IMG/VR virus record: IMGVR_UViG_3300037067_009230
Location: 12,156-76,155 of that record
Strand: one strand, 5' to 3'
Length of the DNA: 64,000 bases
Origin: a virus
Taxonomy: Duplodnaviria > Caudoviricetes
In this document: positions 12,563 to 30,021 of the stretch, piece after piece
Layout of the letters: each line of letters starts with the position of its first letter
Numbering within the stretch: position 1 is the stretch's first letter
Program-made: the position numbers and the translations under genes
Notes under the pieces: generated by a model
What the model saw: only the letters and a program-made list of their open reading frames with translations
What the model was told of the DNA's origin: nothing
Database searches by the model: none

Positions 12563-12883
12563 ATGTGTGACGGAAATTTAGCAATGGCAGAAACTTTGAA
12601 TAACGCAGAACCAACCCAATTGGGTATAGGTGCAGTTAGCAGTAGTGCTTTTGTTAATAGAGAAGGTATTGTTTTGAAAGTTGGTATGAAAGTAAAAGGA
12701 TTTATTACATATCAACGCTCATATATGAGAACTGGTGACAAAGACATCACTGGTACTATTGTAAGCAAACATGGGAGATTGTATGTAAATAGCGATTCTG
12801 AACCCGAAAAGAACTATCCACTTTCAAAATTTGCTCACAATTGGCTAACTCAAAATAAAATTGCATGGTTGGATGTTCTTTAG
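12563..12883 (+). CDS. Cassette-borne hypothetical protein (cassette C1)
   Basis: N-terminus QLGIGAVSS is encoded by an attC-like right arm. Body is bounded by GTTAG(12635) and CTAAC(12896). Confidence 0.65.
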   Translation: MCDGNLAMAETLNNAEPTQLGIGAVSSSAFVNREGIVLKVGMKVKGFITYQRSYMRTGDKDITGTIVSKHGRLYVNSDSEPEKNYPLSKFAHNWLTQNKIAWLDVL

Positions 12884-12959
12884 CATTGCACCTAACGGAC
12901 AGCGGTAAGAGTAGGCCGCTTTGTAGACTGCTCAAATTTAGTAACAGCCTTTCTGCGGT

Positions 12960-13274
12960 ATGCTTTATGACCGCTTGTTAGGCACAGTACATTTTATTAT
13001 GATTTCAATTAAAAAAGCAGATTGGACAAAGAAAAGAGAATACTCAAAAGAAATGAAACTTGATGGATTTATTTCTTCCGTAGAATTAAGCGGAATGCAC
13101 TTTACTCAGATTGATTCACTCGGAATTGATTCTCGAAAATTAGATAATCCAAAAATACTTAAACAGAAATTTGAAGCAGATAATAATTTGCGTTGTATCT
13201 GTTTGGATTACGGAGGCAGAACTAAAAAATATTGGTACAAAGTTGGCGACTTGCGGAAGTTGTATTGTGCCTAA
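12960..13274 (+). CDS. Cassette-borne hypothetical protein (cassette C2; alternative start 12999)
   Basis: Stop TAA lies inside the terminal CTAAC box. Confidence 0.65.
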   Translation: MLYDRLLGTVHFIMISIKKADWTKKREYSKEMKLDGFISSVELSGMHFTQIDSLGIDSRKLDNPKILKQKFEADNNLRCICLDYGGRTKKYWYKVGDLRKLYCA

Positions 13275-13328
13275 CTAGCTAGTAAACATACTAAAGGTAT
13301 GTTTACTATACAAAAATCAGTAAATAAA
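13273..13328 (+). repeat. 56-bp attI-like array-terminal element, copy 1
   Basis: AACTAGCTAGTAAACATAC-TAAAG-GTATGTTTACTATACAAAAATCAGTAAATAAA; three copies in the window. Confidence 0.9.
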
Positions 13329-13363
13329 TACACTTTTAAGGCTAACAAAATAATCAGGTAATT

Positions 13364-13645
13364 ATGGAAAATAAAACATTATTAGTAATCATTCCGGGAC
13401 GAAATACCAAAAAGAGTATATTCAGTTTACTTGTAGCCGAGACGGGTGAGTTTTTAACATCTCGTTTCTGTACCAATTCTGATTTTGCTTATGGTGATTT
13501 ATACTTAACCAGGGAGGATAAAGTAAAAGAATATAAAGAACGCTTTGGAGAAGTTGAGGTGAAGTACATAGATGAGACAGATATCTCAGTAGCCGAATTA
13601 AAATCCCGGAACAAGAAGTGGTTTGAATCATTACCGAAAAAATGA
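13364..13645 (+). CDS. Hypothetical protein, tandem paralogue A
   Basis: KTLLVI.PGR...LLVAETGE.L.S..C.N..FA..DLY...KE.KERFGE shared with the next ORF. Confidence 0.7.
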   Translation: MENKTLLVIIPGRNTKKSIFSLLVAETGEFLTSRFCTNSDFAYGDLYLTREDKVKEYKERFGEVEVKYIDETDISVAELKSRNKKWFESLPKK

Positions 13646-13649
13646 AATT

Positions 13650-13856
13650 ATGAAAACACTATTAGTTATTGATCCAGGTAGAGATGTAATGTATGATTGC
13701 GTATTTCATTTATTGGTTGCTGAGACTGGGGAACATTTAGCATCTCATTTATGTAGTAATTATGGGTTTGCTAAATCAGACTTATATGAAGGGAGGCCAG
13801 AACGTATAAAAGAATTTAAGGAGAGATTTGGTGAAATAGAGATAATAATTCATTGA
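13650..13856 (+). CDS. Hypothetical protein, tandem paralogue B (shorter)
   Basis: Homologous to 13364..13645; start chosen by alignment. Confidence 0.65.
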   Translation: MKTLLVIDPGRDVMYDCVFHLLVAETGEHLASHLCSNYGFAKSDLYEGRPERIKEFKERFGEIEIIIH

Positions 13857-14179
13857 TGAAACCAATATCTCACCAAATGAATTATTATCTCGAAACAAAA
13901 AATGGTATGAATCTTTATCAAAAACAGAATAATATGAGCATATATACAATTGAAAGACAATTAAGTGACAAAGCGGATAAATGGGAACTGCATAATGTCC
14001 AAAATGAGAACAGGGAATTAAAAAACCAAATCAATGAACTTGAAAGAAAAATTGGACAACTTGAAAGTGTAAATAGTAACAGATATTATGCACTTGAACA
14101 GCTTTTTAATATACTTGCGGAACATCCAGAATTCTCTGATGTATCAGATCAACTTTATACGTTAAGGAGTAATCTTTAA
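13853..14179 (+). CDS. Coiled-coil hypothetical protein
   Basis: ORF track; heptad pattern. Confidence 0.5.
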   Translation: MMKPISHQMNYYLETKNGMNLYQKQNNMSIYTIERQLSDKADKWELHNVQNENRELKNQINELERKIGQLESVNSNRYYALEQLFNILAEHPEFSDVSDQLYTLRSNL

Positions 14180-14191
14180 TTATTATAAGTT

Positions 14192-14356
14192 ATGACAAGA
14201 GAATTGGGTTATTACTGGGTACAATGGGACATCAAAGATAATTGGCTAATATTCTGGTTTAATGGTGGATATTGGCAATGCTGTGCAATGGGTAGAATTG
14301 AACTTAATGACAAAAATATATTGTCAATTGATGAACATAGACTTTACCATAAGTAA
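14192..14356 (+). CDS. Small Trp-rich hypothetical protein (54 aa, not in ORF track)
   Basis: Translated by hand: MTRELGYYWVQW...IDEHRLYHK. Confidence 0.55.
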   Translation: MTRELGYYWVQWDIKDNWLIFWFNGGYWQCCAMGRIELNDKNILSIDEHRLYHK

Positions 14357-14368
14357 AAAATTGATTAT

Positions 14369-14581
14369 ATGATAACTATTAAAGTAAAAGGGTGTGTTAA
14401 GGAAACAACGAATGGTTATATAAAACCAGAATGTCCATGTGTGTGGCCCAATAAGAATGGAGAATGGCATTGTCAGTTTGGTTGTTTTCTATCATTTACC
14501 ATATTACATACAAAAGCTCCATCTGATTGTCCATTAAGAGAGGGAGGTGTTGAGATTATCTTAAGCGAAAGCGGGGGGTGA
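14369..14581 (+). CDS. Small Cys-rich hypothetical protein
   Basis: ECPC...WHCQFGC...PSDCPL. Confidence 0.55.
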   Translation: MITIKVKGCVKETTNGYIKPECPCVWPNKNGEWHCQFGCFLSFTILHTKAPSDCPLREGGVEIILSESGG

Positions 14582-14605
14582 AAAATAAAATCTATAATTA
14601 TTTAA

Positions 14606-14637
14606 AAAGGCTCTCATATTAGGGAGCCTTTCTTTTT
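14606..14637 (+). terminator. Intrinsic terminator
   Basis: AAAGGCTCTC-ATATTA-GGGAGCCTTT-CTTTTT at the end of the operon. Confidence 0.8.
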
Positions 14638-15415
14638 ATATCTTATATGGAAGATAGTAGAATCGTTTCCTGACCCTTCTGGGCCCTTTTAACGAGTTCA
14701 CATGCATACAGAGTATACCAGCCGCCTCTTTCTTTGTCCGGACCACCAGAGTCTCCTTAGGGGCTTCTAAGTCAATAACAATGTGTCGTAGGTGTTTCAT
14801 TCAAACATAGCTTTATCTATTCTGGCAAACAGATCCTTCTCCTTAAGGGTATTCTTAAGACACTGCCCAAGGAGCCTACAGCTTACACAAGAGCCAAATT
14901 CCTTACTATCATCCTTATTTGCTTTACACAGGGCACAGTAGATACTCCTGCAGGCTACGTGGATAAATTTTCTCATGATCTTTTTTATTGGTTTATGCAA
15001 AGATAAGTAAAATTGTGTATTCTCTAAGTGGGTTTTACACATTTTCATCAAAATTATTGGGAAATATGGGTATATTTTATGTTATATAACATGTTTTTAT
15101 AGGATATGTGCACATTTTCCACTTTTCTATGCGTGATGTACAGGTTATCGGGGTGGTCCCCTACCCCCTTTGTGTGTTACTGTGGAGGTTTTACACAATT
15201 TCAGGGTGAAATAGGGTCCCATATTCGGATAAAAAGGCATTTTTCTACTTAAAAAGAGGTGAGATCGGGGAATTTCCACTTTTCCATGGGTGGGGGACTA
15301 TCCATCCGATTCACCCCCTGCCCTGCTCTGAGGGAAAACTCGATCCTAAAACCGCTCTCGAATACGACCGGGTCCCCTTTGTCTAATAGATTGACATACA
15401 GCAACATACGTTTCT

Positions 15416-15443
15416 ATTTTACATAATGTTAATTATCGGACAC
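15416..15443 (-). other. XerCD dif-like recombination site
   Basis: Minus strand GTGTCCGATAA-TTAACA-TTATGTAAAAT is 11-6-11; the XerD arm is one mismatch from TTATGTTAAAT. Confidence 0.75.
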
Positions 15444-15673
15444 AAACATATTAAAACGCTTATTTTCAGGCTGTTATATGAATATTTGGGCAATATGACA
15501 GGAAACTGAGAAAATCATAGAGACATTAATAAAAGCGTAGGGGGTGCATAATCCTAATTCTATTTTTACAACTAGACAAATAATATGTTATAAAATATGT
15601 TTTACCTGCATTATATGTTATATAACATATTTTATAAATTGTAACTGACTGATACACAGTATAAAGTAAATAC

Positions 15674-15762
15674 CTGTAAATAATAGAGGATATAAAAGTC
15701 TTTTATTATTTATTACTTATACTATATAATAAAGGATCACTGTAAATAATAGAGGATATAAA
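15674..15762 (+). repeat. 23-bp direct repeat CTGTAAATAATAGAGGATATAAA x2
   Basis: Identical copies at 15674-15696 and 15740-15762. Confidence 0.85.
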
Positions 15763-15984
15763 GATCCGAATATATTTTATTATGGCAATATAAAAATAAT
15801 TGAAAATTATTACTCTCAATATCAGTAACTTATAAATAAAATGAAAATATTTTGAAAAATACCTATTAAAATATATTAATAAAGTAAAACTAAACGTCTC
15901 AAACGTTCACCCTGTGTGGTTTTGCACACGCAGAATTTTTATATTTTATTCCTTAAAAACTATGTAACTCACTGATAATCAGTC

Positions 15985-16033
15985 TTGACATTACATATCT
16001 TAATATTATATCTTTGCTACATGTTCTTTGACA
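15985..16033 (+). promoter_or_regulatory. Early promoter TTG-N21-TATCTTTG plus boxA-like TGTTCTTTGACA
   Basis: Bacteroidota consensus; boxA-like sequence is two mismatches from E. coli rrn boxA TGCTCTTTAACA. Confidence 0.65.
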
Positions 16034-16050
16034 TATGAAATAAAATATCA

Positions 16051-16091
16051 TCCCTGGCAGTTAAGCTGTGGCATTCGATCGCAACCAGGGA
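16051..16091 (+). ncRNA. Armless tRNA-like hairpin, copy 1 (divergent)
   Basis: TCCCTGG/CCAGGGA stem enclosing a short hairpin and a TTCGAT loop. Confidence 0.35.
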
Positions 16092-16123
16092 ACTAATTAT
16101 TAACCACTTTAATACTTAAAAAT

Positions 16124-16351
16124 ATGAATAAAAAATTATTTGAGTCTATTATAGACAAACATAATGCAGGCATGTTTAATATCTCACGCTTAGAGTATTC
16201 GAGTGAACACGAAGAAGCAAAACAAATGCTTAATAAATTAAATAAAAAAAATTTAATTCACTTTGTTAATTATCTTACATGGTATAATGGTCAGTTATAT
16301 GTAGGGATAAATGGTAAAGGCGAATTTGATTTATTTGATCTTCCAAAATAA
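16124..16351 (+). CDS. Early hypothetical protein
   Basis: First ORF after the early promoter. Confidence 0.65.
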   Translation: MNKKLFESIIDKHNAGMFNISRLEYSSEHEEAKQMLNKLNKKNLIHFVNYLTWYNGQLYVGINGKGEFDLFDLPK

Positions 16352-16378
16352 TTATTAACCACTTTAATACTTACTAAC

Positions 16379-16675
16379 ATGAAAACAATAGATTTTAAAC
16401 GTATTAACAAGGACGTTAACGGAAATCCTCGTTATGTATGTCATTATTCAGAGTTTATAACTGATAAGGATAGGGAAAATTTTCCTTACAAGCAACAAAT
16501 ATTTAAAGTAAATGGTTACTTAGATAATCTTTATAAAATTGCTCTAAATAGGGCTAAAACCCTTGGGGGTCGCAAATTCCACAATAAACAGTATGGCGGT
16601 GGGATTGTATTTCAATCTTATAATATCATATATTTGCAAAATAGTATCTTTGAATTAATGAAAAAATATGAATAA
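16379..16675 (+). CDS. Early hypothetical protein
   Basis: FKRINKDVNGNPRY...GGGIVFQSYN. Confidence 0.7.
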   Translation: MKTIDFKRINKDVNGNPRYVCHYSEFITDKDRENFPYKQQIFKVNGYLDNLYKIALNRAKTLGGRKFHNKQYGGGIVFQSYNIIYLQNSIFELMKKYE

Positions 16676-16704
16676 TGAAAACACAAACCAAAAAATCAAT
16701 CATT

Positions 16705-16977
16705 ATGAAAACTTTAGAAAATTTAATCAACGAAAAAACCTACCAAGTCATTGACCAAGTTTCAAATCGCTTCAATTTTTGCGAATTAGTCGACATTGAC
16801 AAACAACTTATTGAATATGCTGAAAATGGCACAGAATACGAATTAACTGAACAATTACCAGAAGATGTAAAAAGAGCAGTTGATACAATGATTACAAACG
16901 ATGTAAAAATTGAAGATTTTACAGGTGTTGTAAGATTTGAAAATGAAGATACTACTTATTATTTATTGACTTGGTAA
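16705..16977 (+). CDS. Hypothetical protein (start set by the repeated 31-bp leader)
   Basis: Leader identical to that of 19051..19149. Confidence 0.6.
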   Translation: MKTLENLINEKTYQVIDQVSNRFNFCELVDIDKQLIEYAENGTEYELTEQLPEDVKRAVDTMITNDVKIEDFTGVVRFENEDTTYYLLTW

Positions 16978-16978
16978 T

Positions 16979-17164
16979 ATGCTAAAACTTGAAGAAATAA
17001 GGGCGTTTTTAACCGAACGCCCTCTTCTTACTCAACGAGGTTTGAGTTTAGAAAGTGGCATATCTGACAGCCTTTTAGGCAAGATTTTAAGAGGTCAAAG
17101 AAATATGACCGAAGATGTTTCCGACAAGTTAGAACCGATACTCCGCAAGTACGGGTTTAAATAG
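16979..17164 (+). CDS. XRE/Cro-like HTH protein
   Basis: LTQRGLSLESGISDSLLGKILRGQRNMT. Confidence 0.8.
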   Translation: MLKLEEIRAFLTERPLLTQRGLSLESGISDSLLGKILRGQRNMTEDVSDKLEPILRKYGFK

Positions 17165-17246
17165 CAGTTAACGTTAAATGTTTGTGCAGTTGGGGATTAT
17201 AAACCACTGCACTGTCAAAATAGTACTAACTTAATAAATACAGATT

Positions 17247-17549
17247 ATGAGCGAATTAGCACAAGACCCCCAATTGCATAAACATATTGTTGTGCGTAGT
17301 TATTTATCATTCTTTGCAGAAAAACACAAGTGCCACATTGATAAAATAATGGTTGGAATGGTTGGGGGTGATTTGCATGTATGGAAATACGACGAAGGCG
17401 CAGCAAATATTTTTACACAACTCGAAATCATATCCAATTTTGAGACTGATGATAGAAAATGGATTTGTCAATTATGTGGCGAATTAGTTAACGGTAGAAA
17501 TGTAACATTTGAAGAATATCACGAAGGTTGTGGTGGCCTCTGTGTATAA
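17247..17549 (+). CDS. Cassette-borne protein with C-terminal Zn-ribbon-like motif
   Basis: ATG lies in the hairpin loop; CQLCG...HEGCGGLC. Confidence 0.65.
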   Translation: MSELAQDPQLHKHIVVRSYLSFFAEKHKCHIDKIMVGMVGGDLHVWKYDEGAANIFTQLEIISNFETDDRKWICQLCGELVNGRNVTFEEYHEGCGGLCV

Positions 17550-17557
17550 TTACGCAC

Positions 17558-17613
17558 AACTAGCTAGTAAACCTACTAAAAGTATGTTTACTATACAAAA
17601 ATCAGTAAATAAA
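17558..17613 (+). repeat. 56-bp attI-like array-terminal element, copy 2
   Basis: 54/56 identical to copy 1. Confidence 0.9.
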
Positions 17614-17628
17614 CAAAAAATTAAAGTC

Positions 17629-18182
17629 ATGAAAACAAAATTAACAGAAGCACAGAAGCAAGCTAATAAAGAGGCTAAACGAGCTAAAATAAAAGCTGAA
17701 AAAAGATTAAAAGAATAGAAGCTGAAAAAACCCAACCAGATGTAAAGGATATTACAATTACTATTGAATGGAAAAAGTCTCGGACATGGGGCGCAAATCC
17801 ACACGCAACGGCAGCCGTAAATTTTAAAGATAAAACAGCAGGCGAATTTAAAACAGGTTTTTACCGTTCTCCTGAAGGTAATTATACTTGTTCTGGGTGT
17901 GGGTACGATAAAGAAAGTACGGTTATTGCTCAGATATTTAATGACTTTCTGAAATACAAACTTTGGAGGCTTAGCCCTGAAAAATTAAAAGGTGGAAATG
18001 GATCCTTAGATAAAGGTCCGGCTCCATATGGAATTCATTTATATTCTGAAAATGAACCTTATTATGATGGAGGTATTGGAACAAGTTGCTATTATAATAT
18101 CTCTGAATACATTGGTGGTAAATTTGAATGCATTGCAAGTGGTAAAACGTTTGATGTTTATAAATATACTGATAACGAATAA
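17629..18182 (+). pseudogene. Frameshifted phage early gene (or sequencing error)
   Basis: MKTKLTEAQ...RLKE* continues in the -1 frame for 156 codons (ITIEWKKSRTWGANP...SGCGYDKES...YDGGIGTSC). Confidence 0.65.
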
Positions 18183-18262
18183 AGTTTTTGCCTGTTACAA
18201 GTCAGGGATTAATACAGAGTATCCCCCAGATAAGGGGGTAATGTAACCAAAAATTAAAAGAT

Positions 18263-18568
18263 ATGAAAACAGATAATCAAGTTACGGATGTAATTTTCCG
18301 TAAGTTTAAGGATGGAGATATAATAGCCTTATTTCCATATGAAATTGATAATTATCATGGTGACTGTCTAAGTTATATGCATATTGGACAACATGGCGGA
18401 GCTAATTACTGGCATTGCTTAACAATAACTAAGCCAGCAATGATAAATGAATATGAGCCATTGATGCGGGAACTTATTTCTATTGGATATGAACTAAGAA
18501 TAAGACAAAAAATAAATTACAAAGTGTTTTTATCTGCTATGAAAATATTTAGAGATAAATATAATTAA
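18263..18568 (+). CDS. Early hypothetical protein
   Basis: VIFRKFKDGDIIALFP...SYMHIGQHG. Confidence 0.7.
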   Translation: MKTDNQVTDVIFRKFKDGDIIALFPYEIDNYHGDCLSYMHIGQHGGANYWHCLTITKPAMINEYEPLMRELISIGYELRIRQKINYKVFLSAMKIFRDKYN

Positions 18569-18588
18569 CTAACCTAATACTTAACATT

Positions 18589-18972
18589 ATGAACTACAAT
18601 GATCTAATAAACAAAATTTACCAAAAGACCATCGAAAATCAGTTTTATGTTGTAAATATTGAAGGTAAGGAACCTGTTACGGGCTATACTGTAAGCACAA
18701 TTGGCAATGAATTAAGGATTAAATTAAGTGATTTTACACCCGAAAAAATTGATAAATATATTAAAACAAAGCTACTTAGGTATCCTTATGCCTATTTTGG
18801 TACATGGATCTTAGATGATACGGTATATATTGATGTTTTATATTATACAGAATGCAAAGCTATTGCCATCGAAGCTGGAAAAATGTTTGGCCAAGTATGT
18901 ATCTGGGATATCTCTAGTAAACAAGAAATATATTGGCTATCTGAGGCATTATTTGAATATAGTTTAAATTAA
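18589..18972 (+). CDS. Hypothetical protein of a GTW...DV...A...GK..GQ..IWD family
   Basis: Motif pattern; a similar domain occurs in the 2093-aa protein. Confidence 0.6.
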   Translation: MNYNDLINKIYQKTIENQFYVVNIEGKEPVTGYTVSTIGNELRIKLSDFTPEKIDKYIKTKLLRYPYAYFGTWILDDTVYIDVLYYTECKAIAIEAGKMFGQVCIWDISSKQEIYWLSEALFEYSLN

Positions 18973-19015
18973 CCGGACTATGGAGCATGAGGCAGTCCGA
19001 TTCTGCCTCCGGTTC
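18971..19015 (+). ncRNA. Armless tRNA-like hairpin, copy 2
   Basis: AACCGGA/TCCGGTT acceptor-like stem; GGCAG-TCCGATT-CTGCC T-arm. Confidence 0.5.
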
Positions 19016-19050
19016 AAATGTTTTTAGTATTAACCAAAAAATCAATCATT

Positions 19051-19149
19051 ATGAAAACTTTACTTATTCTTTTAATCGTATTTGTTGCTATATGCCTTCT
19101 AGGTATATTATACAACGGTTACACATGCTTCAAACAACTGTTTAAATAA
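19051..19149 (+). CDS. 32-aa membrane peptide (not in ORF track)
   Basis: MKTLLILLIVFVAICLLGILYNGYTCFKQLFK. Confidence 0.5.
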   Translation: MKTLLILLIVFVAICLLGILYNGYTCFKQLFK

Positions 19150-19213
19150 CAGAGTGTCAAAGAACTACAGTATTTAAATATACTTAAAATTTCAATATGT
19201 TTAATTAAAAAAG

Positions 19214-19726
19214 TTGAAAAAAATTATGAAAAAGTACAAATTGACTAATCAGGAATTGCAGACTTACAAGGACTGCCAATGGGAAATCGGCGTATCAAAA
19301 ACAACATCCGGAGAAGGTAATTTATGTTCCTCCGGATGGTTACATTATTATGATAATCCTTTATTAGCCATCTTATTAAATCCTATTCATGCAGATATTA
19401 AAAATCCACGACTTTTTGAATGTAAGGCTGAAGGTAAACATCTTAGTGATAGAGGATTAAAAGGGGGTTGTACAAAAATGACTTTAATTAAAGAAATTAC
19501 AGTCCCTGAAATTTCCAAAGAACAAAAAATTGCTTTTGGGATTCTTTGTTCTTTGGAAGTATATAAAGAAACAAAATATAAGAAGTGGGCTGAAAATTGG
19601 CTAAATAATACCGACAGGTCAGCAGATGCTGCTTATGCTTATGCTTATGCTGCTTATGCTGCTTATGCTTATGCTGCTGATGTTATAGATTTAATTAAAA
19701 TAGCTGAAAAAGCTATGAAATATTAA
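19214..19726 (+). CDS. Hypothetical protein with Ala/Tyr tandem repeat
   Basis: LCSSGWLHYY; GCT/TAT repeat encodes AAYAYAYAAYAAYAYAA. Confidence 0.7.
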   Translation: MKKIMKKYKLTNQELQTYKDCQWEIGVSKTTSGEGNLCSSGWLHYYDNPLLAILLNPIHADIKNPRLFECKAEGKHLSDRGLKGGCTKMTLIKEITVPEISKEQKIAFGILCSLEVYKETKYKKWAENWLNNTDRSADAAYAYAYAAYAAYAYAADVIDLIKIAEKAMKY

Positions 19727-19733
19727 AGTAAAT

Positions 19734-19778
19734 AACCCTGTATGGTACTCGATCAGGTTCGACTCCTGATCCGGGTTC
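19734..19778 (+). ncRNA. Armless tRNA-like hairpin, copy 3
   Basis: AACCC/GGGTT stem; ATCAGG-TTCGACT-CCTGAT T-arm. Aligns with copy 2 (TAACC...TATGG...GGTTCAA). Confidence 0.5.
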
Positions 19779-19779
19779 A

Positions 19780-20046
19780 ATGAGTAATATTACTCAGTTA
19801 TTTAAATTTATTGATATGAAAATAGAACATTTTGAATCCAAAGAATCTGGCAAAGTTTCTTTAGTATGCCAAGATCCATTATTTAATCAATGGAATAATT
19901 TAAAACAATTAATGTCAAAGGCTGTAAGTATTCGTGAGTGGAATATTTTACGGGGGCTGGCTAAACTTACCTATCCAATTGAATTAATAAATAGACTGGA
20001 TGCTTCTGGCTTTATCGTTTCCTTAAATCTTAAAAATGAGAAATAA
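19780..20046 (+). CDS. Hypothetical protein
   Basis: ORF track; coupled to the next gene. Confidence 0.55.
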   Translation: MSNITQLFKFIDMKIEHFESKESGKVSLVCQDPLFNQWNNLKQLMSKAVSIREWNILRGLAKLTYPIELINRLDASGFIVSLNLKNEK

Positions 20047-20588
20047 TGGAAAAGGAAACAGTAACAATTGAGATTCTAAATCGAGCTATTGAAGTAGAGC
20101 CAGTAACTGCTATACATCCAAAGGGTGTAAAAATATTCATGGAGAGAATCATAGGTACCACAAAGTATCTTTCAAACAACAGAAAGATCTTATATGATGT
20201 ATCCTTCATTAGTTTGTATAATTACAATAATAAAATTATTGATGGGTGTTTTGCGATTGATGGGTTTGTCTATAAAATTGATGCATGGGCTTCCATAGAT
20301 TTTCCGGATAGATTCTTACAGATACTGGATAAAAATGTACCAGAATGTAGGGGTATATGTTTTTATCTTGATAATAAACTCTATGCTGAGAATGTACCAT
20401 TTCTCAAATGTGATGATATGCAAGACCATCTTCTTACCCAAAGAAATGATGGTCTGATGTGGTTCAACAAGTTAAAAATTGTGGACAAATCAGGAAACAA
20501 GACAGTATTTTACCCTTCCATCAAAGCAAAGAAACTTCATGATCAATTTAAAACGCAAAAAGAAGGATATAGTACCACAGAAGCCTGA
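20046..20588 (+). CDS. Hypothetical protein
   Basis: 180-aa ORF. Confidence 0.65.
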   Translation: MEKETVTIEILNRAIEVEPVTAIHPKGVKIFMERIIGTTKYLSNNRKILYDVSFISLYNYNNKIIDGCFAIDGFVYKIDAWASIDFPDRFLQILDKNVPECRGICFYLDNKLYAENVPFLKCDDMQDHLLTQRNDGLMWFNKLKIVDKSGNKTVFYPSIKAKKLHDQFKTQKEGYSTTEA

Positions 20589-20769
20589 TATTAAAGTTGC
20601 TTATTATGGGTTCCATTGCCCTATTTGTGGAGTTTACGTACCAGCCGGGACTAATTATTTAAACTTTAATGGGTTTAAAATGTGTATTAAAGAGTCTAAT
20701 TAATTAGCCTCTTATCGAATAAACAGTAAATTGTATGTAAAAACATCTATATTAGTAGATAATTATTAA

Positions 20770-20809
20770 ACAAAAAGGGGGTAAGATTGATTTCTTACCC
20801 CCTTTTTGT
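20770..20809. terminator. Bidirectional terminator between convergent operons
   Basis: Perfect 17-bp inverted repeat ACAAAAAGGGGGTAAGA-TTGATT-TCTTACCCCCTTTTTGT. Confidence 0.9.
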
Positions 20810-20817
20810 TTTAAATT

Positions 20818-21261
20818 TTAAAGAGACTCTTTTAATAAAATCTTTGATTCTGTTAATATCTGTTTTCTCCGATTCTTTAACTTAATGATTGTAGTATCAA
20901 TCATAGCCAGTAAAGTATTTCTATCCAGTTCAAAAAATATTGTAAGTAACCCCGTATTTTGTAACTCATTTGGGATATAAACTCTTTGAAATCCTACTGG
21001 TTGAGTAACCTCTGCCTCAGATGTATTATCACCTGTATGAACCATCTCCAGAGGTTGCCCACAATTATTAGCCGGGTAAATAGGACTGATAATAGGTCGG
21101 GCACCGTTATTAGGAAGGGTTTCCATAATAATGTCACCGTTTACAATGTCACAATTTATCATAGTTTTACCAAATAAACCTAATTTGGCTATCCTATAAT
21201 CAATAAATTTAAGTTCCTCATCCAAGTTCCCAGCCTTATTTAAAAATTTTCTCAGTTGCAT
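20818..21261 (-). CDS. Hypothetical protein
   Basis: 147-aa ORF, last gene before the terminator. Confidence 0.65.
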   Translation of the reverse strand: MQLRKFLNKAGNLDEELKFIDYRIAKLGLFGKTMINCDIVNGDIIMETLPNNGARPIISPIYPANNCGQPLEMVHTGDNTSEAEVTQPVGFQRVYIPNELQNTGLLTIFFELDRNTLLAMIDTTIIKLKNRRKQILTESKILLKESL

Positions 21262-21265
21262 AATA

Positions 21266-22270
21266 TTAGTCTTTATATACTGTACCTCTATATATTTTCA
21301 TGTTACTCATAGCAAAATCTTTTCCAGATGTCTCAATTAACGCAAATCCCTGATTCCATTTATTTATAGGATTCCATTCCGGATGAAGTCCACAAAGACA
21401 CCCAATAGACCACCAGCTCATAAGTTTCTCGTTTATGTCAAGTTCTGAATGAGCACTGGATCTATGATGATGAGACACCACAGCAGAACTAAGAGTTTTT
21501 AAGAATAAACCTCTGGCCGGATTAACTGGAGAAGCTGCCCCACCCTGTAATTCATGCCCATGAACCCAAGGTAATCTCCCAGTATATATAATCTGATGTT
21601 CAATAACATCAACATTTTCAATCCCCCTGATCTTAATTATATTCTCAAATTTATATTCTTCCATATCAAGTAACTCAGGTGCCTTTACTCTTAAATAATT
21701 TTCCCATCGTTCTTCATGATTACCAAGTTTCCAGTAAATCTTTACGTCTGGAAAAGTTTTTTGAAGTATATTAAGAAATTCAACCCACATCCATAGTTCA
21801 TCACTAAAAGATCTATTTCTCATATCCTTATTAAATTTGGATAATTGATAACAATCAAGACCATCCCCATTGATCAGTATAAAATTTATCTTTCGATGTC
21901 CTATTGTATAATCTATCATTGCATTAATAGCCTCAACATTATGATATGGAAAATGAGAATCTGAAAATACTAATCCATTATTAAACCTTTCTGGTATATG
22001 AATAGGATTCCATGTAGTTTCATCTGATTCAGGAATCGCAAATGGGTTTAAAGATCCAGCCTCTTTAAGATATTTATTAGTACTTAATCTTTTTCTGTCA
22101 TTATTACCATTTTGCCCTCTATAATACCTAATTATATTCCTAGCGGATTCTACATTTAAAAATATGGTAGAATTTTCTGTATAAATCTTTTTAGCTAAAG
22201 TAAGGGAAGGAACATTTGGAAATCTTTCTAAGTATTCTTTTACTACAATACCTGTTATTTTTTTATTCAT
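21266..22270 (-). CDS. Calcineurin-like metallophosphoesterase with N-terminal helical domain
   Basis: SDSHFP, INGDGLD, GNHEE, HGHE, SHHH motifs. Confidence 0.85.
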   Translation of the reverse strand: MNKKITGIVVKEYLERFPNVPSLTLAKKIYTENSTIFLNVESARNIIRYYRGQNGNNDRKRLSTNKYLKEAGSLNPFAIPESDETTWNPIHIPERFNNGLVFSDSHFPYHNVEAINAMIDYTIGHRKINFILINGDGLDCYQLSKFNKDMRNRSFSDELWMWVEFLNILQKTFPDVKIYWKLGNHEERWENYLRVKAPELLDMEEYKFENIIKIRGIENVDVIEHQIIYTGRLPWVHGHELQGGAASPVNPARGLFLKTLSSAVVSHHHRSSAHSELDINEKLMSWWSIGCLCGLHPEWNPINKWNQGFALIETSGKDFAMSNMKIYRGTVYKD

Positions 22271-22294
22271 AACGTTAAGTTTAATAAGTATTTA

Positions 22295-22302
22295 CAAATA
22301 TA
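22295..22302 (-). promoter_or_regulatory. -7 box TATATTTG
   Basis: TAnnTTTG in the 39-bp gap upstream of the phosphoesterase. Confidence 0.55.
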
Positions 22303-22309
22303 CTACTAT

Positions 22310-23656
22310 TTAGTAAACTATGAATAAATTTTTACTAGGCCTTGTACAATTTGTATAATAAATTCTATTTCTTTCATACACATTATAATTAGTTTCAATA
22401 TCCCATTTTAGAACATAAGCATTTTCATAAGTACTACCCTGTGCCTTATGAGCTGTAATAGCATATGAATATTTTACTTGATGCCATTGTTGGAGAAAAT
22501 TATAATAGTCTACCCATGCAGATCTGGATTGATACGACCCCTGAGAATAACTTTTAGCTAAAGCTACTTGTAAAGTGCAGAGTTTATTAAAAGTTGCTTC
22601 TGAATCCTCATGTATAATTCGGAGCATATACTCATTATATTTCTCATAAGTATATACTCGAACTTGAGTGTTATAATATTTTAAGGTGTATTCATCATTT
22701 AAGACTTCTTGCATGACAGTTGCCGATAAAACTTCCATCTCCTCATTTGTATTAATTAATGTATGCTTATCTTTTATAACTGGACCATCAGCAATTAATT
22801 TATCTCCTTTTATAATTTTTGGAATATCTACTCCAAAAATATATTCTCGAATTCTTTTATTATAATCATCAATAGTATTGTTTCTCCATCCTATTACTTT
22901 TATGTAATCAATAGATCTTTCATAGTTTGGACTTGTAAACATTGGAAGAATCTTATTGATAAAATATTCTTCTTCTTTGTCCTTTTTTATTGGAAAAACC
23001 CCTCCCAGATCATTCTTAACCTCCTGAGGATTCAATATTTGAACCGGGGCATGTATCCTTGTCCTAATATTAGTGGCATTTTCAATTATAGGATTACCAG
23101 CTGCTTGTCTAATAATAGAATTAAGAGAACTTGTTTCAATTCCATATTTTAATCTAACCTCCTTATTAAACGGTAAAGAAGATTCTTGACCTACCGGGGG
23201 AATCTGTAAAGGATCTCCAACCAGTATAATTTTCTTCCCATTTTCAGATAAAGGAATTAAAGTTTCAAATATTATATCATTAATCATTGAAACCTCATCA
23301 ACTATAATATGGGTATATTCATCTGCTGGAAATCCTAATGAATGATCCGGCTTAAATGATAAGGTTCCATCATTATTAATAACTTGTCTCATCCCAAGTG
23401 CTGCGTGGATGGTACTAAACGTCACATCACATTTAATCATATCTTTGAGTACTTTGACAGCCTTATGGGTGGGGGCTGTTACAATTACACGACATTTATT
23501 TTTTTTAATATATCGTACAATTTCATCAAGTAAATATGTTTTACCAGTTCCGGCATATCCTTGTAATAAATATATTCCTCCCCCATCTAATTTTAAGAAC
23601 ATTAAAATAGCTTCATATGCTTTTGGTTGATCTCCGAGTAAGTTTTTTTCTTCCAT
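22310..23656 (-). CDS. SF1 Dda/RecD-like helicase
   Basis: GYAGTGKT, APTHKA, IVDEVSM, GDPLQIPPV, YAITAHKAQGSTY. Confidence 0.9.
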   Translation of the reverse strand: MEEKNLLGDQPKAYEAILMFLKLDGGGIYLLQGYAGTGKTYLLDEIVRYIKKNKCRVIVTAPTHKAVKVLKDMIKCDVTFSTIHAALGMRQVINNDGTLSFKPDHSLGFPADEYTHIIVDEVSMINDIIFETLIPLSENGKKIILVGDPLQIPPVGQESSLPFNKEVRLKYGIETSSLNSIIRQAAGNPIIENATNIRTRIHAPVQILNPQEVKNDLGGVFPIKKDKEEEYFINKILPMFTSPNYERSIDYIKVIGWRNNTIDDYNKRIREYIFGVDIPKIIKGDKLIADGPVIKDKHTLINTNEEMEVLSATVMQEVLNDEYTLKYYNTQVRVYTYEKYNEYMLRIIHEDSEATFNKLCTLQVALAKSYSQGSYQSRSAWVDYYNFLQQWHQVKYSYAITAHKAQGSTYENAYVLKWDIETNYNVYERNRIYYTNCTRPSKNLFIVY

Positions 23657-23745
23657 TTGCTATAATTGTTAATATCAATCTACATAATAAAGTTAGAGTA
23701 CAGAAAATTATTATAACTACAATACCTATTGTAATTGAGAAAAAA

Positions 23746-24186
23746 TTAAATATTGCTCTCATGACTAAAATAGGGATTTGCTTGTTTTGATAATCTATCT
23801 ACAATCCTTTGTCTAGGGTTCGATCTTGGAACCCAATCAAAATGTATCGATTTATCTTTCATGTAACTTAACATATTATTAATCTGAGCGTTAAGTTCTA
23901 TCAGTTTAGGTGCACGCACTCTATATTTACCCTGTAATTGATGAATTACTATCTCGGAATCACTAAATATTATAGCACCTGTTATGTTTTTCTTAAGTGT
24001 AAGGAGTTTTGACATAGCTGCTTTAATGGCTAAATACTCTGCCTCGTTATTACTTCCTAGATGTTCACCGGAAATCCTTAAAGTTAAAAAGGGTTTTATG
24101 CTTTTTTCATAAAAAAATGCCACACCCATACCCATCCTACCATCTAGGTAATAACAAGAACCATCACAATGAATGTGTATGATCAT
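23746..24186 (-). CDS. rnhA: Ribonuclease HI
   Basis: HCDGSC, SNNEAEYLA, FSDSEIV, WVPR, VDRLS. Confidence 0.9.
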   Translation of the reverse strand: MIIHIHCDGSCYYLDGRMGMGVAFFYEKSIKPFLTLRISGEHLGSNNEAEYLAIKAAMSKLLTLKKNITGAIIFSDSEIVIHQLQGKYRVRAPKLIELNAQINNMLSYMKDKSIHFDWVPRSNPRQRIVDRLSKQANPYFSHESNI

Positions 24187-24872
24187 AATAACTTCTGTTT
24201 TATTACTTGTAAATGGGCAGCTACAAAAAGATCTGCTAGAACATTAATAGTGATTGGCTGCCTCATTAATTCAGCCTGTTCTTTATTTGTATAGAATCCA
24301 GTCTCTGTAAGAATTGCAGGCATTCTAGTCTTAGTAAGAACATAAAATTTTGCCTCCTTATCTTTATCTCCATCTATCATATCAGCTCGCATTTGCCACC
24401 CCATATTAGAAAGATGATTATAAAATATATCAGCTATCGGATCTGATTTTGTCTTTCCGGGAGATGTAAATACCTCAATACCGGATGCAGCGTGTGTTTT
24501 AAACGCATTAGCATGAATTGAATGATAGTAGCATTTAAATTTATGATCTGATAAATATTGCATGGTATTATTAGCCCTTTCAACTCTTAAAGGCACTGTA
24601 ATGTCATCATCCTCTGATACTATAATAGAATATGGAAGGTCTAGATCATTTAATTTAGATGCATATGTCCATGCTAATGCCCTATTAAATACCCCCTCAT
24701 AAAAAGTAAACTCAGGATATACATACATTTTTGATGGTGCAGTAGTATATACACAGTCTAATATCCCACCGTGTCCCGGATCTATAAGAGGTACAATTTT
24801 TGAATCTCTGCCATAATGATATGATGGTATCTGATTCTTTATATCACTGATAATTTTAAGAAGTGCTTTCAT
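24183..24872 (-). CDS. N-acetylmuramoyl-L-alanine amidase (Amidase_3), putative endolysin
   Basis: IDPGHGG, SIHANA, ILTETGFYTN. Confidence 0.9.
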   Translation of the reverse strand: MKALLKIISDIKNQIPSYHYGRDSKIVPLIDPGHGGILDCVYTTAPSKMYVYPEFTFYEGVFNRALAWTYASKLNDLDLPYSIIVSEDDDITVPLRVERANNTMQYLSDHKFKCYYHSIHANAFKTHAASGIEVFTSPGKTKSDPIADIFYNHLSNMGWQMRADMIDGDKDKEAKFYVLTKTRMPAILTETGFYTNKEQAELMRQPITINVLADLFVAAHLQVIKQKLL

Positions 24873-25417
24873 TTATAAATTTGTTTGAATAATTCATAAC
24901 TGATATCCCTAAAGAATATGTCAGATTTAAATCCAATAATATCCAGATTCCACCCCATAAACTGTGCTGCTGTGTATCTCATCCATTCAATATGTTCGAT
25001 TAAAACCATAGGAAAAAAGATATAATATAAATCTTTTGGCATGCCGTTCTCTCGAACCATCAAAAATGGTTTTTTCTTAGCAGCAACAGCATCATTTTTA
25101 CACTGGATCATAAACCTGTATATGACAGAGTTAGTCCTAATGAACGGTGCGGTCTTTTTTAATCCAAGGTTCTTATAGAACTTAGTCTCCACACTATAAG
25201 GGAAATCAAATTCTCTGTCTACATTAATAACATCTCCGCAAATATCACCACGTTCTTTCCATCTTAATCCCCCGGACATAGGTACTCTAACAAATTCATG
25301 CCCGGTCCATTCCTGTAATAAATGAGTAACATTTAACTCATTTCTATTCCCTTTGAGTTTACTATTAATCCTGTTATTTGTAAGTTTAATGTCAAATAAA
25401 TCTTCGGCTACGTTCAT
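24869..25417 (-). CDS. Holliday-junction resolvase-like PD-(D/E)XK nuclease
   Basis: KGNRNE...FVRVPMSGG...GDV...SVETKF. Confidence 0.75.
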   Translation of the reverse strand: MNVAEDLFDIKLTNNRINSKLKGNRNELNVTHLLQEWTGHEFVRVPMSGGLRWKERGDICGDVINVDREFDFPYSVETKFYKNLGLKKTAPFIRTNSVIYRFMIQCKNDAVAAKKKPFLMVRENGMPKDLYYIFFPMVLIEHIEWMRYTAAQFMGWNLDIIGFKSDIFFRDISYELFKQIYK

Positions 25418-25884
25418 AATACCTTATTTATGAAATAATGTTTCCAAAGTCTTTCCTGCTCTGTCTTATCACCACTGGTCTTAATCCAGTATAGTAAAGA
25501 TAGGAAAAAATTATTCTTCCAACCCCCATTTTTATCAAACCATTTTTTAAACTCCTTTGTCTCATTCTCTTCCTTTACTTTTTTCTTACTATTCTTTTCC
25601 ATTTCAAGTATTTTACTAACTTGGTCAGAAAAAGCAGCACCCCGAAGAGTAAATGGTCTATTTTTTGATTTGTTAAACTCTTTACATTCGGCTATCCACA
25701 TATTACGATACTTAGTAAATAGTGCATCGGCTTCTTCACCTTCAGTATCCTTTAAATCGGACCGGTAAGTAAAAAATAAATTTATAAGTGTGGTAAGAGT
25801 CTCCTGTTTCTTTGCTCTTAATCTTCTAACAAATCTGGGATCTTTCTCCTTAGTTTCGTTTTGAACAACCTTTTTCTTTTCCAT
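25414..25884 (-). CDS. Hypothetical protein
   Basis: 156-aa ORF coupled to both neighbours. Confidence 0.65.
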   Translation of the reverse strand: MEKKKVVQNETKEKDPRFVRRLRAKKQETLTTLINLFFTYRSDLKDTEGEEADALFTKYRNMWIAECKEFNKSKNRPFTLRGAAFSDQVSKILEMEKNSKKKVKEENETKEFKKWFDKNGGWKNNFFLSLLYWIKTSGDKTEQERLWKHYFINKVL

Positions 25885-27830
25885 TAGTTTAAAATTAAAT
25901 TGTTATTTTCTTTAGTAAAATTTATTGTATTAGCATATAAGTTATCCAGAGTACTGGAATGAGATATTACATAAACACTCTTTCCTTCATCGGCTTTCAT
26001 CCTAATTAAATCAAATACAGCATTTTCACCATCCTCATCCAAACCATCAAAAACTTCATCCATAATTAATAGGTTGATATCTGTATTAATTGAAATGAGA
26101 TCGTACATCGCAAAAATTAAAACGATATCTAATCTTTGCTTCTCACCCCCTGAAAATTCTTTATAGTCTTTATTTAATTTATCCCCTAAAGAGCATATTG
26201 TCGTAAAAGGCTTGCTAGATTTCGTTAAATCAATTGCAAATTCAATTGATATTCCAAGCCGTTCTCCATATTTGCGTGTATTCTCGTTAAGCTGGGCCAG
26301 CATAGCGTTAAAAATAAATGCTTTTATTCCACTGGCACCAAATCCCTTCTCAGACCACCATTTTATTATTTTAATCTCTTCTTGTAAATCCGTGATATTA
26401 CTATTAAGTGATTCAGATTTAATCTTCATTAAAGTAATTGCTTTCCCCTGTGATGCTATATTAAAATCTGGAGCCTTTTCATTCTGTAAAGATTTTAACC
26501 TAATCTTTTCATTTTCTAATAGGACTATCTCAAATAGGGTATTTTCAATGTTATTAAGTTCTTGATATCTGGCAGCAACTACATTGTATCTATCATTTGT
26601 GGTAGTAATATCGTTTTTAACTCTTTTAATCCCTTCTGTGACATCATCTAAAGCCTGTGTTAATTGAAGTAATTTATTATTTAACTCAAGTATCTGAGTA
26701 TTTAAATCTTCAATCTCAGCCTCAGCCTCTTTGTTAGCAGTCGAATAAATCTTTTCAATATTTGCATGATTAGTTTGATTAATAGCCTGATGACATACAG
26801 GGCATAATCCTTTTACAATAGATTCTTTAACAATACCTTTATTTTCCTCAATCTCTTTCTTAATTTGATTTATTCTAGCAGTAAACTGGTTAATTCTATA
26901 ATTATTATTATCAATCTCAGACTGAATACGTTTCTGGTCATTATCAATCTCTACCAAATCCAATCGATACTTATTCTTGGTACTAGTGAGTTCATTATAT
27001 TCCTGTTCAATCTTATCATGTTCTTCTTTGTCATAATCAAGAGGAGGAACAACTACTTTTAACTCATTATTATAATTAGTAATAAGAGTTTCAAAACCCT
27101 TAATATTTGATTCACAGTCTGAAATCTTATTAGCCTGATTCTGACCCCACTCCTCACAAAGACGTTTATCCCGAACAAGGGTAGCCTCTGCCATAGTAAT
27201 CTGAGAATTAAGGGTATCAGCCTCAGATATGATCTTACTAAGATTTTGATTCTTCTCAGTAAGATCCAGTTCGGCTTTATGCTTACAGATATTAACCCAC
27301 TCTACATCAAATAATTGCTCAAACAAGGCTCTCTTATCTTTATTATCCTGAGTGATTAATCGGGCCATCCTTTGACCAAACATTACAGAGTTCATAAATG
27401 TCTTAGGATCAGTGCCAAGGAGTTTATTAATTCTTTCCTGAGTTTCATCTTTATTAATTCCTGGGAAAAGTTGTTCATTATTTTTCCAGAGCATGAGTGA
27501 ATCATTACCCTTTAAACCGTTAGTATCTCCCTTATAATCCAAATGACGAGCAATGGAGTAATCTTCTCCATCTACTTCAAAATACGTTATTACTCTGGTT
27601 CCTTTCCAATTTGAGGGTCTTATCTCTTCCCATGAAGCGACTTTATCCTGATTAGTTTCTTTTAAGTTTGTACCAAATAAACACCATACCACAGATTCAA
27701 ATAATGTTGTTTTTTTAGTACCATTAACACCTTTAATAAGATTTAATCCGGGACGGTCAAGATCAAATATTAATTGATTGACGATACCACGGAAACCATC
27801 TATTATTGCTTGTTGAAATTTAATTTTCAT
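25884..27830 (-). CDS. sbcC: SbcC/Rad50 (gp46-like) ATPase
   Basis: Walker A variant GVNGTKKT, coiled coil, Zn-hook CPVC, FSGGE signature, MDEVFDGLD, ISH. Confidence 0.9.
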   Translation of the reverse strand: MKIKFQQAIIDGFRGIVNQLIFDLDRPGLNLIKGVNGTKKTTLFESVVWCLFGTNLKETNQDKVASWEEIRPSNWKGTRVITYFEVDGEDYSIARHLDYKGDTNGLKGNDSLMLWKNNEQLFPGINKDETQERINKLLGTDPKTFMNSVMFGQRMARLITQDNKDKRALFEQLFDVEWVNICKHKAELDLTEKNQNLSKIISEADTLNSQITMAEATLVRDKRLCEEWGQNQANKISDCESNIKGFETLITNYNNELKVVVPPLDYDKEEHDKIEQEYNELTSTKNKYRLDLVEIDNDQKRIQSEIDNNNYRINQFTARINQIKKEIEENKGIVKESIVKGLCPVCHQAINQTNHANIEKIYSTANKEAEAEIEDLNTQILELNNKLLQLTQALDDVTEGIKRVKNDITTTNDRYNVVAARYQELNNIENTLFEIVLLENEKIRLKSLQNEKAPDFNIASQGKAITLMKIKSESLNSNITDLQEEIKIIKWWSEKGFGASGIKAFIFNAMLAQLNENTRKYGERLGISIEFAIDLTKSSKPFTTICSLGDKLNKDYKEFSGGEKQRLDIVLIFAMYDLISINTDINLLIMDEVFDGLDEDGENAVFDLIRMKADEGKSVYVISHSSTLDNLYANTINFTKENNNLILN

Positions 27831-27856
27831 TTTATTAATAATTAATAAAAAGTGTG

Positions 27857-27912
27857 TTTATTTACTGATTTTTGTATAGTAAACATACTAAAGGTGTGTT
27901 TACTAGCTAGTT
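27857..27912 (-). repeat. 56-bp attI-like array-terminal element, copy 3
   Basis: Matches copy 1 except for the hairpin loop, which is reverse-complemented (CTTTA vs TAAAG), and one substitution. Confidence 0.9.
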
Positions 27913-28267
27913 AGCAGCCATTTTTAAGGAAGTCTGGTAGCTTCTCATAACATTCACTTAAAAATAATGGTCTGTCTTTGTAATGCTTTCGTAACTTCAA
28001 GAGCATATTTCTTTGATATTCCACCTGTTTAACAAAGTCATTGTATTCGGTTTCTGTAAGTTCATTTTGTCCTTCTTTTCTAAAGAATTTATTGTAGAAA
28101 TAAACAAGTGAATCTTTGCACTTTTGAAGTTCCTCTTGGTCAGCAGATAATAAACGGCTGCTAACCGCATCTATACCCAATTGGGTAGTTTCTGAGGTAT
28201 TCAAATTTTTGTGTTCCATTGTTACTTTATTTTTTAAGTTGATAATTTTGTGTTTCAAATTGCCCAA
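27911..28267 (-). CDS. Cassette D8 protein (probable start 28219 in hairpin loop)
   Basis: QLGIDAVSS N-terminus comes from the hairpin arm; stop inside CTAAC. Confidence 0.65.
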   Translation of the reverse strand: MGNLKHKIINLKNKVTMEHKNLNTSETTQLGIDAVSSRLLSADQEELQKCKDSLVYFYNKFFRKEGQNELTETEYNDFVKQVEYQRNMLLKLRKHYKDRPLFLSECYEKLPDFLKNGC

Positions 28268-28319
28268 CTGGGCATAGCTGCAACACGTTAGGTTTAATAA
28301 TTACCCCTACGCACCGGGA

Positions 28320-28490
28320 CTAATTACTATCAGGATCGTATGTTTTATATTTCCATCCTAACCATGCCATTCGTCCAAATTTCTTATCCAGTTCTAAATC
28401 AATGTGGGCCATTGACCAATTCTTACTGATTTCAAATTCCTCTGATGACCCATTTTCTAATTCTACAATTATTGTTCTCATTTGTCGCAT
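28320..28490 (-). CDS. Cassette D7 protein (56 aa, not in ORF track)
   Basis: Translated by hand: MRQMRTIIVELENGSSEEF...WLGWKYKTYDPDSN. Confidence 0.55.
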   Translation of the reverse strand: MRQMRTIIVELENGSSEEFEISKNWSMAHIDLELDKKFGRMAWLGWKYKTYDPDSN

Positions 28491-28577
28491 AATTAATTTC
28501 GTTATCTGATCTCTTCTGTAATTACTGAAATCTAACTACGTGTAAAATTCATTGAAACGAAATTTTACACCTGTCCG

Positions 28578-28874
28578 TTAGCAAACATGCCGATAGAGGT
28601 ACCCACTTTTATGAGCGCGTTCATCAACTTGTTGCATTAGTTCTTTTGCTGATTCACTTCCGTAAGGTCTGCGATATTTGACTTCTTCTGTGCCGTCTGG
28701 CCACTTTTGCACAATTTCAGTAGTTACAAAGGCACGATTTGCTAACAATGTATTTACGCCATTGGCGGTTACATTCTCGCTGGATAAGTTATCGGTTTTC
28801 ATATATTCGTTTTTACGTTTAAAATTTGTACTAATTAATCGCCAACAGGCGCAAATACTCACCGTTAGCGGCAA
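28578..28874 (-). CDS. Cassette D6 protein (probable start 28802)
   Basis: Start in hairpin loop; stop inside CTAAC. Confidence 0.6.
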   Translation of the reverse strand: MPLTVSICACWRLISTNFKRKNEYMKTDNLSSENVTANGVNTLLANRAFVTTEIVQKWPDGTEEVKYRRPYGSESAKELMQQVDERAHKSGYLYRHVC

Positions 28875-29167
28875 TTAAGCGATTTTATGTACTCATTAGC
28901 AACATAACTTGCTTTGCATTCATCAAACTCATTAAGTGTTGATTTGTACCATATCAAAAAATCGCTTAACAGTTCGCTTTGCCCGCTAACATCAGGTATA
29001 GTTAATTGCCTTTGCTCCGATTCATACCCGTTCGCTAAGTGCTCAGAATATTCGGTCATTAACCTAATAACAGTATCATAACTAAATGCTGTTCCTTCTT
29101 CTTGTCCGTCTGGGTAACGAACTTTCTGTGTGTACCCTTTTTCAAATAAAAATTGATGTGCTTTCAT
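28865..29167 (-). CDS. Cassette D5 protein; N-terminal ~59 aa encoded within a giant attC-like hairpin
   Basis: QLTIPDVS marks the GTT junction; stop inside CTAAC. Confidence 0.65.
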   Translation of the reverse strand: MKAHQFLFEKGYTQKVRYPDGQEEGTAFSYDTVIRLMTEYSEHLANGYESEQRQLTIPDVSGQSELLSDFLIWYKSTLNEFDECKASYVANEYIKSLNCR

Positions 29168-29275
29168 AATTCGCTCACTATTTAAGTTATTAAAGTTTAT
29201 TACTCTTATTAAGGTTAGTAGTAATTTGACAGAGGCAACTAACCATACCTGTGTTCGTTAGGCACAATAAAAAGA

Positions 29276-29512: not shown

Positions 29513-29638
29513 ATGCTATAAAAAATAGCGGTTTTAGTAGTTTGCACAAGGTTTATACTTCTATTTAATTTCACTGTATTTTGATAAATTTGTTCTTCTA
29601 TTTCCGCTACTTTTCATAGCATCAACGTTAGGGTGCAT

Positions 29639-29977: not shown

Positions 29978-30021
29978 CTTGCCATATACTTAACGTTAGT
30001 TGCAAGGCTAAGTCCATGCAT

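Follow-up and report, generated by a model that had tools for sequence, protein, structure and literature searches.

What stands at the end of a gene-cassette array in a phage, and could it be the place where new cassettes are inserted? An integron is commonly regarded as a bacterial system that has a single integrase and a single attI, and the published work on phages to date describes integrase-free attC clusters without an account of how the cassettes were inserted. The question is raised by a 64,000-bp stretch of DNA, here called the window (bases 12156–76155 of the 76,155-bp IMG/VR record IMGVR_UViG_3300037067_009230, completeness rating 92%), in which three arrays of small genes and hairpins all end in the same 56-bp element. 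We read this element as an attI-type end site of integron-like arrays, probably orphaned or served in trans, and give this reading a probability of roughly 0.55. Together with its counterparts in other phages, the element would identify the insertion end of phage cassette arrays. Such end sites are genome-specific and multi-copy, and in many phages they lie directly before a compact recombinase without the domain held to define integron integrases. Site and enzyme together would make a pair open to testing, belonging to a gene-capture system through which anti-restriction methylases and further accessory genes pass from one flavobacterial phage to another.

The original prediction described three near-identical copies of the element, each fused at AAC to the end of the last cassette and each holding a 12-bp hairpin. 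All three were recovered where they had been placed (T1–T3, or copies 1–3, in Table 1), and scanning the entire 76,155-bp record gave exactly three. In 3/3 copies the element starts directly 3′ of the AAC that closes the last cassette; the sequence preceding it is CTAAC at copies 1 and 3 and ACAAC at copy 2. The first 15 nt (AAC TAGCTAG at the start) and the last 31 nt are invariant in all three, the latter against 0 expected in 100 shuffles, and only the loop and the last part of the 5′ arm vary. Copies 1 and 3 have 67 nt in common, more than the predicted 56 bp. Folded as DNA, the element forms a hairpin with a 12-bp A+T-rich stem between the two conserved blocks, perfect in copy 1 (ΔG −9.4, z −3.75) and with one mismatch each in copies 2 and 3. 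The 5′ arm and loop of copy 3 are inverted relative to their flanks, which makes this copy fold better on the window + strand, and the loop sequence is identical on that strand in all three copies.

Each of these elements closes an array. A genome-wide scan finds strong CTAACG...GTTAG hairpins in only three places, and each such array ends in the 56-mer. On the gene-sense strand a unit consists of a small gene ending in CTAAC (where TAA is the stop codon), followed by G, an imperfect palindrome of ~124 nt and a GTTAG closure. We measured the rules of cassette architecture over at least 30 phage loci gathered in the analysis, calling hairpins by a custom scan. Tested as attC-type sites, nine hairpins in the record and 186 across the loci are imperfect palindromes bounded by AAC and GTT cores, with a modal length of 124–125 nt and a 5′ spacer longer than the 3′ spacer. 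Three regularities emerge. First, the ten bases from GTTAG complement the end of their own unit in 68/88 cases, compared with a mean of 13.4 and a maximum of 23 for permuted boxes, and the box on the opposite side of the same hairpin matches in only 5/88. Complementarity to its own box is a classic hallmark of an integron cassette; scored by eye, it amounts to 10/11, 9/9 and 10/10 for the units at T1, T2 and T3, respectively. Second, of the two strands, the one with AACG gives the better fold in 177 of the 186 hairpins (mean −29.5 kcal/mol, versus −23.4 for its complement). Third, the hairpin core is co-conserved with the downstream body in nine pairs and with the upstream body in none; a unit thus comprises a hairpin with the body behind it, and the cut falls at AA/C before the hairpin (the slash marks the cut). 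The 56-mer is joined precisely at this cut point. The arrays consist of genuine integron-like cassettes.

The cassettes also move. The methylase unit at 30911–29995 is 91% identical in DNA, and its protein 96% identical, to units in G001, a complete 71-kb phage that shares only this cassette with the present phage and is otherwise unrelated to it. It likewise matches a 2,564-bp contig, L009. In these matches homology ends at the end box. The alignments show cassette mobility directly. The contig (IMG/VR 3300005656_000198, with direct terminal repeats) is made of three cassettes only, two DNA methylases and a unit with two open reading frames, all three of which follow the own-box rule; the contig could represent a circle of several cassettes, or else a tandem array as assembled.

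The position of the element can be compared with that of a known attI. We read attI1, aadA1 and its attC directly in the class 1 integron of R100 (Tn21 In2), where the AACG strand is the bottom strand, the one that is recombined and that leads to attI1 and intI1. The order along it is hairpin, body, AA/C, reverse complement of attI1 and intI1. Along the AACG strand of the phage arrays the order is hairpin, body, AA/C and 56-mer, which is the R100 order with the 56-mer in the place of attI at T1–T3. The element thus shares with attI1 its array position, the AA/C junction (G/TT on the other strand) to the first-inserted end of the array, and the AACG strand; attI sites are, like the 56-mer, platform-specific end sites, with cassettes common to several platforms. 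It differs from attI1 in having no integrase gene beside it or in the record, in being present in three copies instead of one, and in the 12-bp hairpin within it. The phage cassette genes lie on the AACG strand and point to the element, whereas aadA1 in R100 is antisense to that strand. Cassette genes pointing away from attI, with a promoter at the attI/intI end, are therefore not what the phage arrays present, and the 56-mer cannot supply a promoter of the Pc type.

The same arrangement recurs in phages unrelated to the present one, where terminal elements peculiar to each genome, and present in several copies, stand at the same junction. G001 carries five copies of an ~80-nt terminal element, all joined directly after TAAC, and G004 carries four copies of a third, distinct element; across the three genomes the AAC junction is precise in 12/12 copies. 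One of the G001 copies contains the start codon of a gene for a 266-residue tyrosine recombinase. Relatives of this protein occur at 48 loci in IMG/VR, and at ~35 of the 48 a TAAC/TA site with an ATATAT motif lies 40–52 nt before the recombinase start, with AACG hairpins upstream on the same strand. A recombinase gene follows the array-terminal site in both G001 and G005, and the succession of array, terminal site and recombinase is therefore the standard layout. The recombinase (P0048) is Xer/IntI-like: its alignment with IntI1 is full-length (27% identity, E 3e-33), yet it lacks the ~45-residue IntI-specific insertion and scores under the NCBIfam cut-offs for integron integrase. These Xer-like platforms resemble the present arrays in their ~124-nt AACG hairpins, the own-box rule, genes on the folding strand and the shared methylase cassette (91% DNA identity), and differ from the present genome in having a recombinase gene directly after the terminal site and the ATATAT motif within it. 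A likeness between the element and the recombinase-linked sites in the spacing of an A-rich tail was considered and dropped, as nhmmer gave it no support. In G001, the first 19 codons of a homologue of the 68-residue gene that lies 3′ of copy 1 are found at 8606–8665 (window 13650–13706), where the opening hairpin of an array truncates the gene; arrays can therefore begin inside resident genes.

These comparisons are consistent with the following mechanism. A cassette comprises a ~124-nt hairpin and the gene body behind it, cut and joined at AA/C in front of the hairpin, with the 56-bp element replacing the next hairpin after the last cassette. The 56-mer itself is probably a recombination site and would act as the double-stranded partner to which a tyrosine recombinase joins a folded, single-stranded cassette site. 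New cassettes would therefore enter beside the element, at the 3′ end of the array. An enzyme acting in trans would have to be encoded by the host, by a co-infecting phage or in the 8% of the genome that is missing; failing that, all three copies would by now be orphans. A stronger version, that the genome is a distributed integron with three working docking sites across its operons, each loaded by a recombinase in trans, is possible, though less likely than not. Its enzyme would come from a co-infecting phage of the Xer-like platform family or from the host, and since the cassette genes face the site, each new cassette would join the 3′ end of an existing transcription unit.

Several results weigh against taking the element for an attI-type site. 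The adjacent tyrosine recombinase or HUH gene that had been looked for lies neither beside the copies nor elsewhere in the record: there is no match to PF00589 at E<=1, no tyrosine, serine, Y1 or Y2 recombinase among the families tested (including PF01797 and PF04986), and tblastn of the phage recombinase returned noise only, with no such gene after any of the three copies. The record accordingly has no integron integrase beside the site, and no informative domain is present in the genes next to copies 1 and 2. The 56-mer lacks the ATATAT motif of the recombinase-linked sites and shows no detectable homology to them, as an nhmmer profile of 34 such sites had no match at the three copies. The positional side of the attI-like interpretation is right: order and polarity are those of R100, and the layout recurs elsewhere. 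Within the element, the stem has no compensatory changes among the three copies. Finally, the hairpins to either side of the methylase body differ among three phages, which means that exchange is not confined to one cut point and takes place also at or near the GTTA box.

The search for further copies of the 56-mer in genomes and phages bears on the same point. Neither a 20-mer nor a hairpin pattern had a further match in IMG/VR; the sole match in JGI metagenomes was a chance 20-mer inside a gene, and the sole match in GTDB genomes an intergenic partial look-alike in a Ruminococcus metagenome-assembled genome; cultured phages had no match to either a megablast of the region or a hairpin query. 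With no other public copy found, comparison and covariation lend the reading no support, and neither an empty site nor a variant array turned up in the sequences searched. Contigs that match one cassette hairpin at 85% likeness diverge into unlike sequence at its two boxes and possibly belong to other organisms. The Ruminococcus stretch (SVNR01000009; L008 6715–6772) has 8-nt stem arms and a 20-nt post-hairpin run in common with the element; chance or convergence on a palindrome may account for the likeness.

The main rival is an expression role for the downstream genes. The element would be a present-day expression signal, whether a promoter particular to the phage, a hairpin for RNA processing or stability, or a translation-restart leader, that restores the expression of resident genes behind an inserted array; the cassette junction would then be a by-product, through secondary targeting of the element or co-travel. 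All three copies do run with local transcription, 16–36 nt before the next start codon: a same-strand gene begins 27–36 nt past copies 1 and 3 (sbcC at copy 3), and at copy 2 the next ATG, 16 nt further on, shares its frame with a start codon that lies within the element. An ATG in the 3′ arm opens an identical 10-codon mini-frame in every copy, and at copy 3 the frame stops 9 nt before the sbcC start. An invariant 31-nt block on the gene-proximal side and the translational coupling of sbcD to sbcC in relatives would also suit a leader. The expected signals are missing, however. The flavobacterial −33 TTTG and −7 TAnnTTTG motifs were not seen by eye on either strand of the three copies, though the −7 type is visible at three other promoters of the window; the A+T-rich stem is followed by A-rich sequence with no T-run; and no Rfam family matched at the element or at the cassette hairpins. 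Two of the five G001 elements face only convergent genes, so that as a class these elements are not leaders, and the precise AAC junction in all 12 copies demands a recombination step in any case. We therefore consider a present-day expression signal unlikely. Two narrower candidates were dropped: a hairpin promoter of the N4 type served by a phage RNA polymerase, as no polymerase was found among the large proteins tested, and an RNase III-type processing site, since many of the hairpins have 3′ arms that lie within coding sequence.

Instead of an attI, the element could be the final attC of the array in degenerate form, which would be used as a folded single strand along with the last unit's end box. 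The precedent is the work of Qi et al. 2023 (PMC9892861), who reported attC clusters without an integrase in virulent phages, among them Polaribacter phage P12002L, to whose methylase that of the window is homologous. There, HattCI and Infernal called the terminal region of P12002L an attC, which was recombined as single-stranded DNA; IntI1 recombined this ‘P12002L_attC2’ at G/TTAGGC, and the ordinary hairpin attC1 failed. Primer Table S3 of that paper shows P12002L_attC2 to comprise the end box that closes the last methylase unit and the next ~60 nt, and so the array-terminal region on the opposite strand. We suggest that this published attC is really an array-terminal site; its recombination by IntI1 also counts in favour of the attI-type reading. 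The 12-bp hairpin right beside the core of our element would fit a degenerate attC as well. Against it, the element has no GTTAG-like closing box, which leaves the core unpaired in the folded strand; no hairpin comparable to it occurs in the G001 and G004 terminal elements; and the site in the recombinase-linked loci stands where attI stands. A degenerate attC is accordingly rather improbable. The clusters of attC sites lacking integrases (CALINs) of that study resemble the present arrays in being integrase-free and in including N6/N4 DNA methylase cassettes, and differ from them in that no conserved terminal element is described (PMC9892861).

The original prediction raised a rolling-circle (HUH) end as an alternative; more broadly, a HUH or other transposase would move a whole block, with the 56-mer at its end. 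This is very improbable: a hairpin beside CTAGCTAG, as in IS91/Helitron-like ends, three copies in one genome and relatives without element and array would be in keeping with it, whereas the record has no Y1/Y2 transposase (PF01797 and PF04986 are absent), no matching second end was found, the terminal elements of the other phages have the same junction without a CTAG hairpin, and the junction is the ordinary cassette cut point.

The arrays also invite comparison with another kind of phage cassette. The promoter-early stem-loop (PeSL) cassettes of T4-type phages, reportedly described by Arbiol and co-workers in 2010, are said to be small accessory genes flanked by stem-loops and shuffled among phages, much like the present ones. 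Their repeats are of one sequence and recombine by homology, whereas the hairpins studied here are unrelated save for short cores and follow the own-box rule, and the 56-mer is found only at array ends.

The genome is that of a phage from a groundwater sample, with a G+C content of ~33% in the window, which encodes a portal, a terminase, a DnaB-like helicase, a family A DNA polymerase, SbcCD and tail genes; small + strand genes (7.8–20.6 kb) are sandwiched by two − strand blocks. The TAnnTTTG-type promoter motifs, together with the methylase common to Flavobacterium, Cellulophaga and Polaribacter phages, point to a probable host among the Flavobacteriia. Using the terminal gene as query, we found no sequence extending the virus record past its end. 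The coordinates of the elements, arrays and neighbouring genes are collected in Table 1.

Table 1. Terminal elements, cassette arrays and neighbouring genes, in window coordinates
Feature	Position	Strand	Remarks
Terminal element copy 1 (T1)	13273..13328	+	Joined at AAC; TAGCTAG; 12-bp hairpin without mismatch; A-rich tail; homologous to copy 3 as far as 13337
Terminal element copy 2 (T2)	17558..17613	+	Fused to unit ending ACAAC; one stem mismatch
Terminal element copy 3 (T3)	27857..27912	-	26 nt 5′ of sbcC start codon; 5′ arm and loop flipped relative to copies 1 and 2
Array 1	12591..13272	+	Orphan 3′ arm 12591-12642, then 88-nt hairpin 12893-12980, then unit ending at T1
Array 2, one unit	17168..17557	+	Hairpin 17168-17293, boxes TTAACG and GTTGT; body end ACAAC complements own box 9/9
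Array 3, eight units	27913..31290	-	Between DUF7768 gene and T3
Array 3 hairpins (approximate)	31290-31158, 31022-30892, 30002-29872, 29634-29504, 29264-29215, 28871-28740, 28584-28530, 28294-28159	-	From hairpin scan
N6/N4 DNA methylase gene in array 3	30022-30852	-	Cassette unit
sbcC/rad50-like gene	25884..27830	-	Native to phage lineage; directly 3′ of T3
sbcD-like phosphoesterase gene	31673..32653	-	Adjoins sbcC in relatives
DUF7768 gene	31284-31676	-	Between sbcD and array 3

The surroundings of array 3 differ from those in relatives of the phage. In relatives whose SbcC is 53–62% identical, sbcD abuts sbcC with no array, no hairpins and no 56-bp element, and the two genes are translationally coupled; in the window they are split by the DUF7768 gene, the eight-unit array and T3. 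These relatives came from a protein search, and a locus-level search via SbcC gave no close relatives. The same 12-nt translational-coupling junction (TTAATAAAATGA) occurs at 31676, at the sbcD stop and DUF7768 start, and at 27830, at the sbcC start. In relative L004 this junction fuses sbcD straight to sbcC, so the whole insert of the window is flanked by a short direct repeat. Arrays 1 and 3 also have sequence in common: the orphan 3′ arm at the gene start of array 1 (12591–12642) is 87% identical over 52 nt to the 3′ arm of the last array 3 hairpin (28158–28209), and as a consequence two unrelated proteins both carry an N-terminal TQLGI..AVSS motif.

A few further features of the window were recorded. 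A type-P3 twister ribozyme at 18184–18254 (+) reaches 51.9 bits, where the gathering score is 39.9 (E 8e-9); it lies in the small-gene block about 570 nt 3′ of copy 2. Iteron-like direct repeats of 33–44 nt at 7407–7532, in a divergent intergenic region where the GC skew turns, are possibly a replication origin. A two-gene module encoding a 147-residue protein and a 334-residue metallophosphoesterase (20818–22270) recurs in L005 (15803–17279) and L006 (15859–17334); it is on the same strand as the helicase in the window and on the opposite strand in these relatives, which amounts to an inversion, and the breakpoint adjoins a convergent terminator hairpin at 20761–20818. A tRNA-Met gene is present at 10285–10358 (+). 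By eye, the sequence at 19727–19779 (+), for which ARAGORN made no call, resembles a tRNA 3′ half, with a T-arm and an acceptor.

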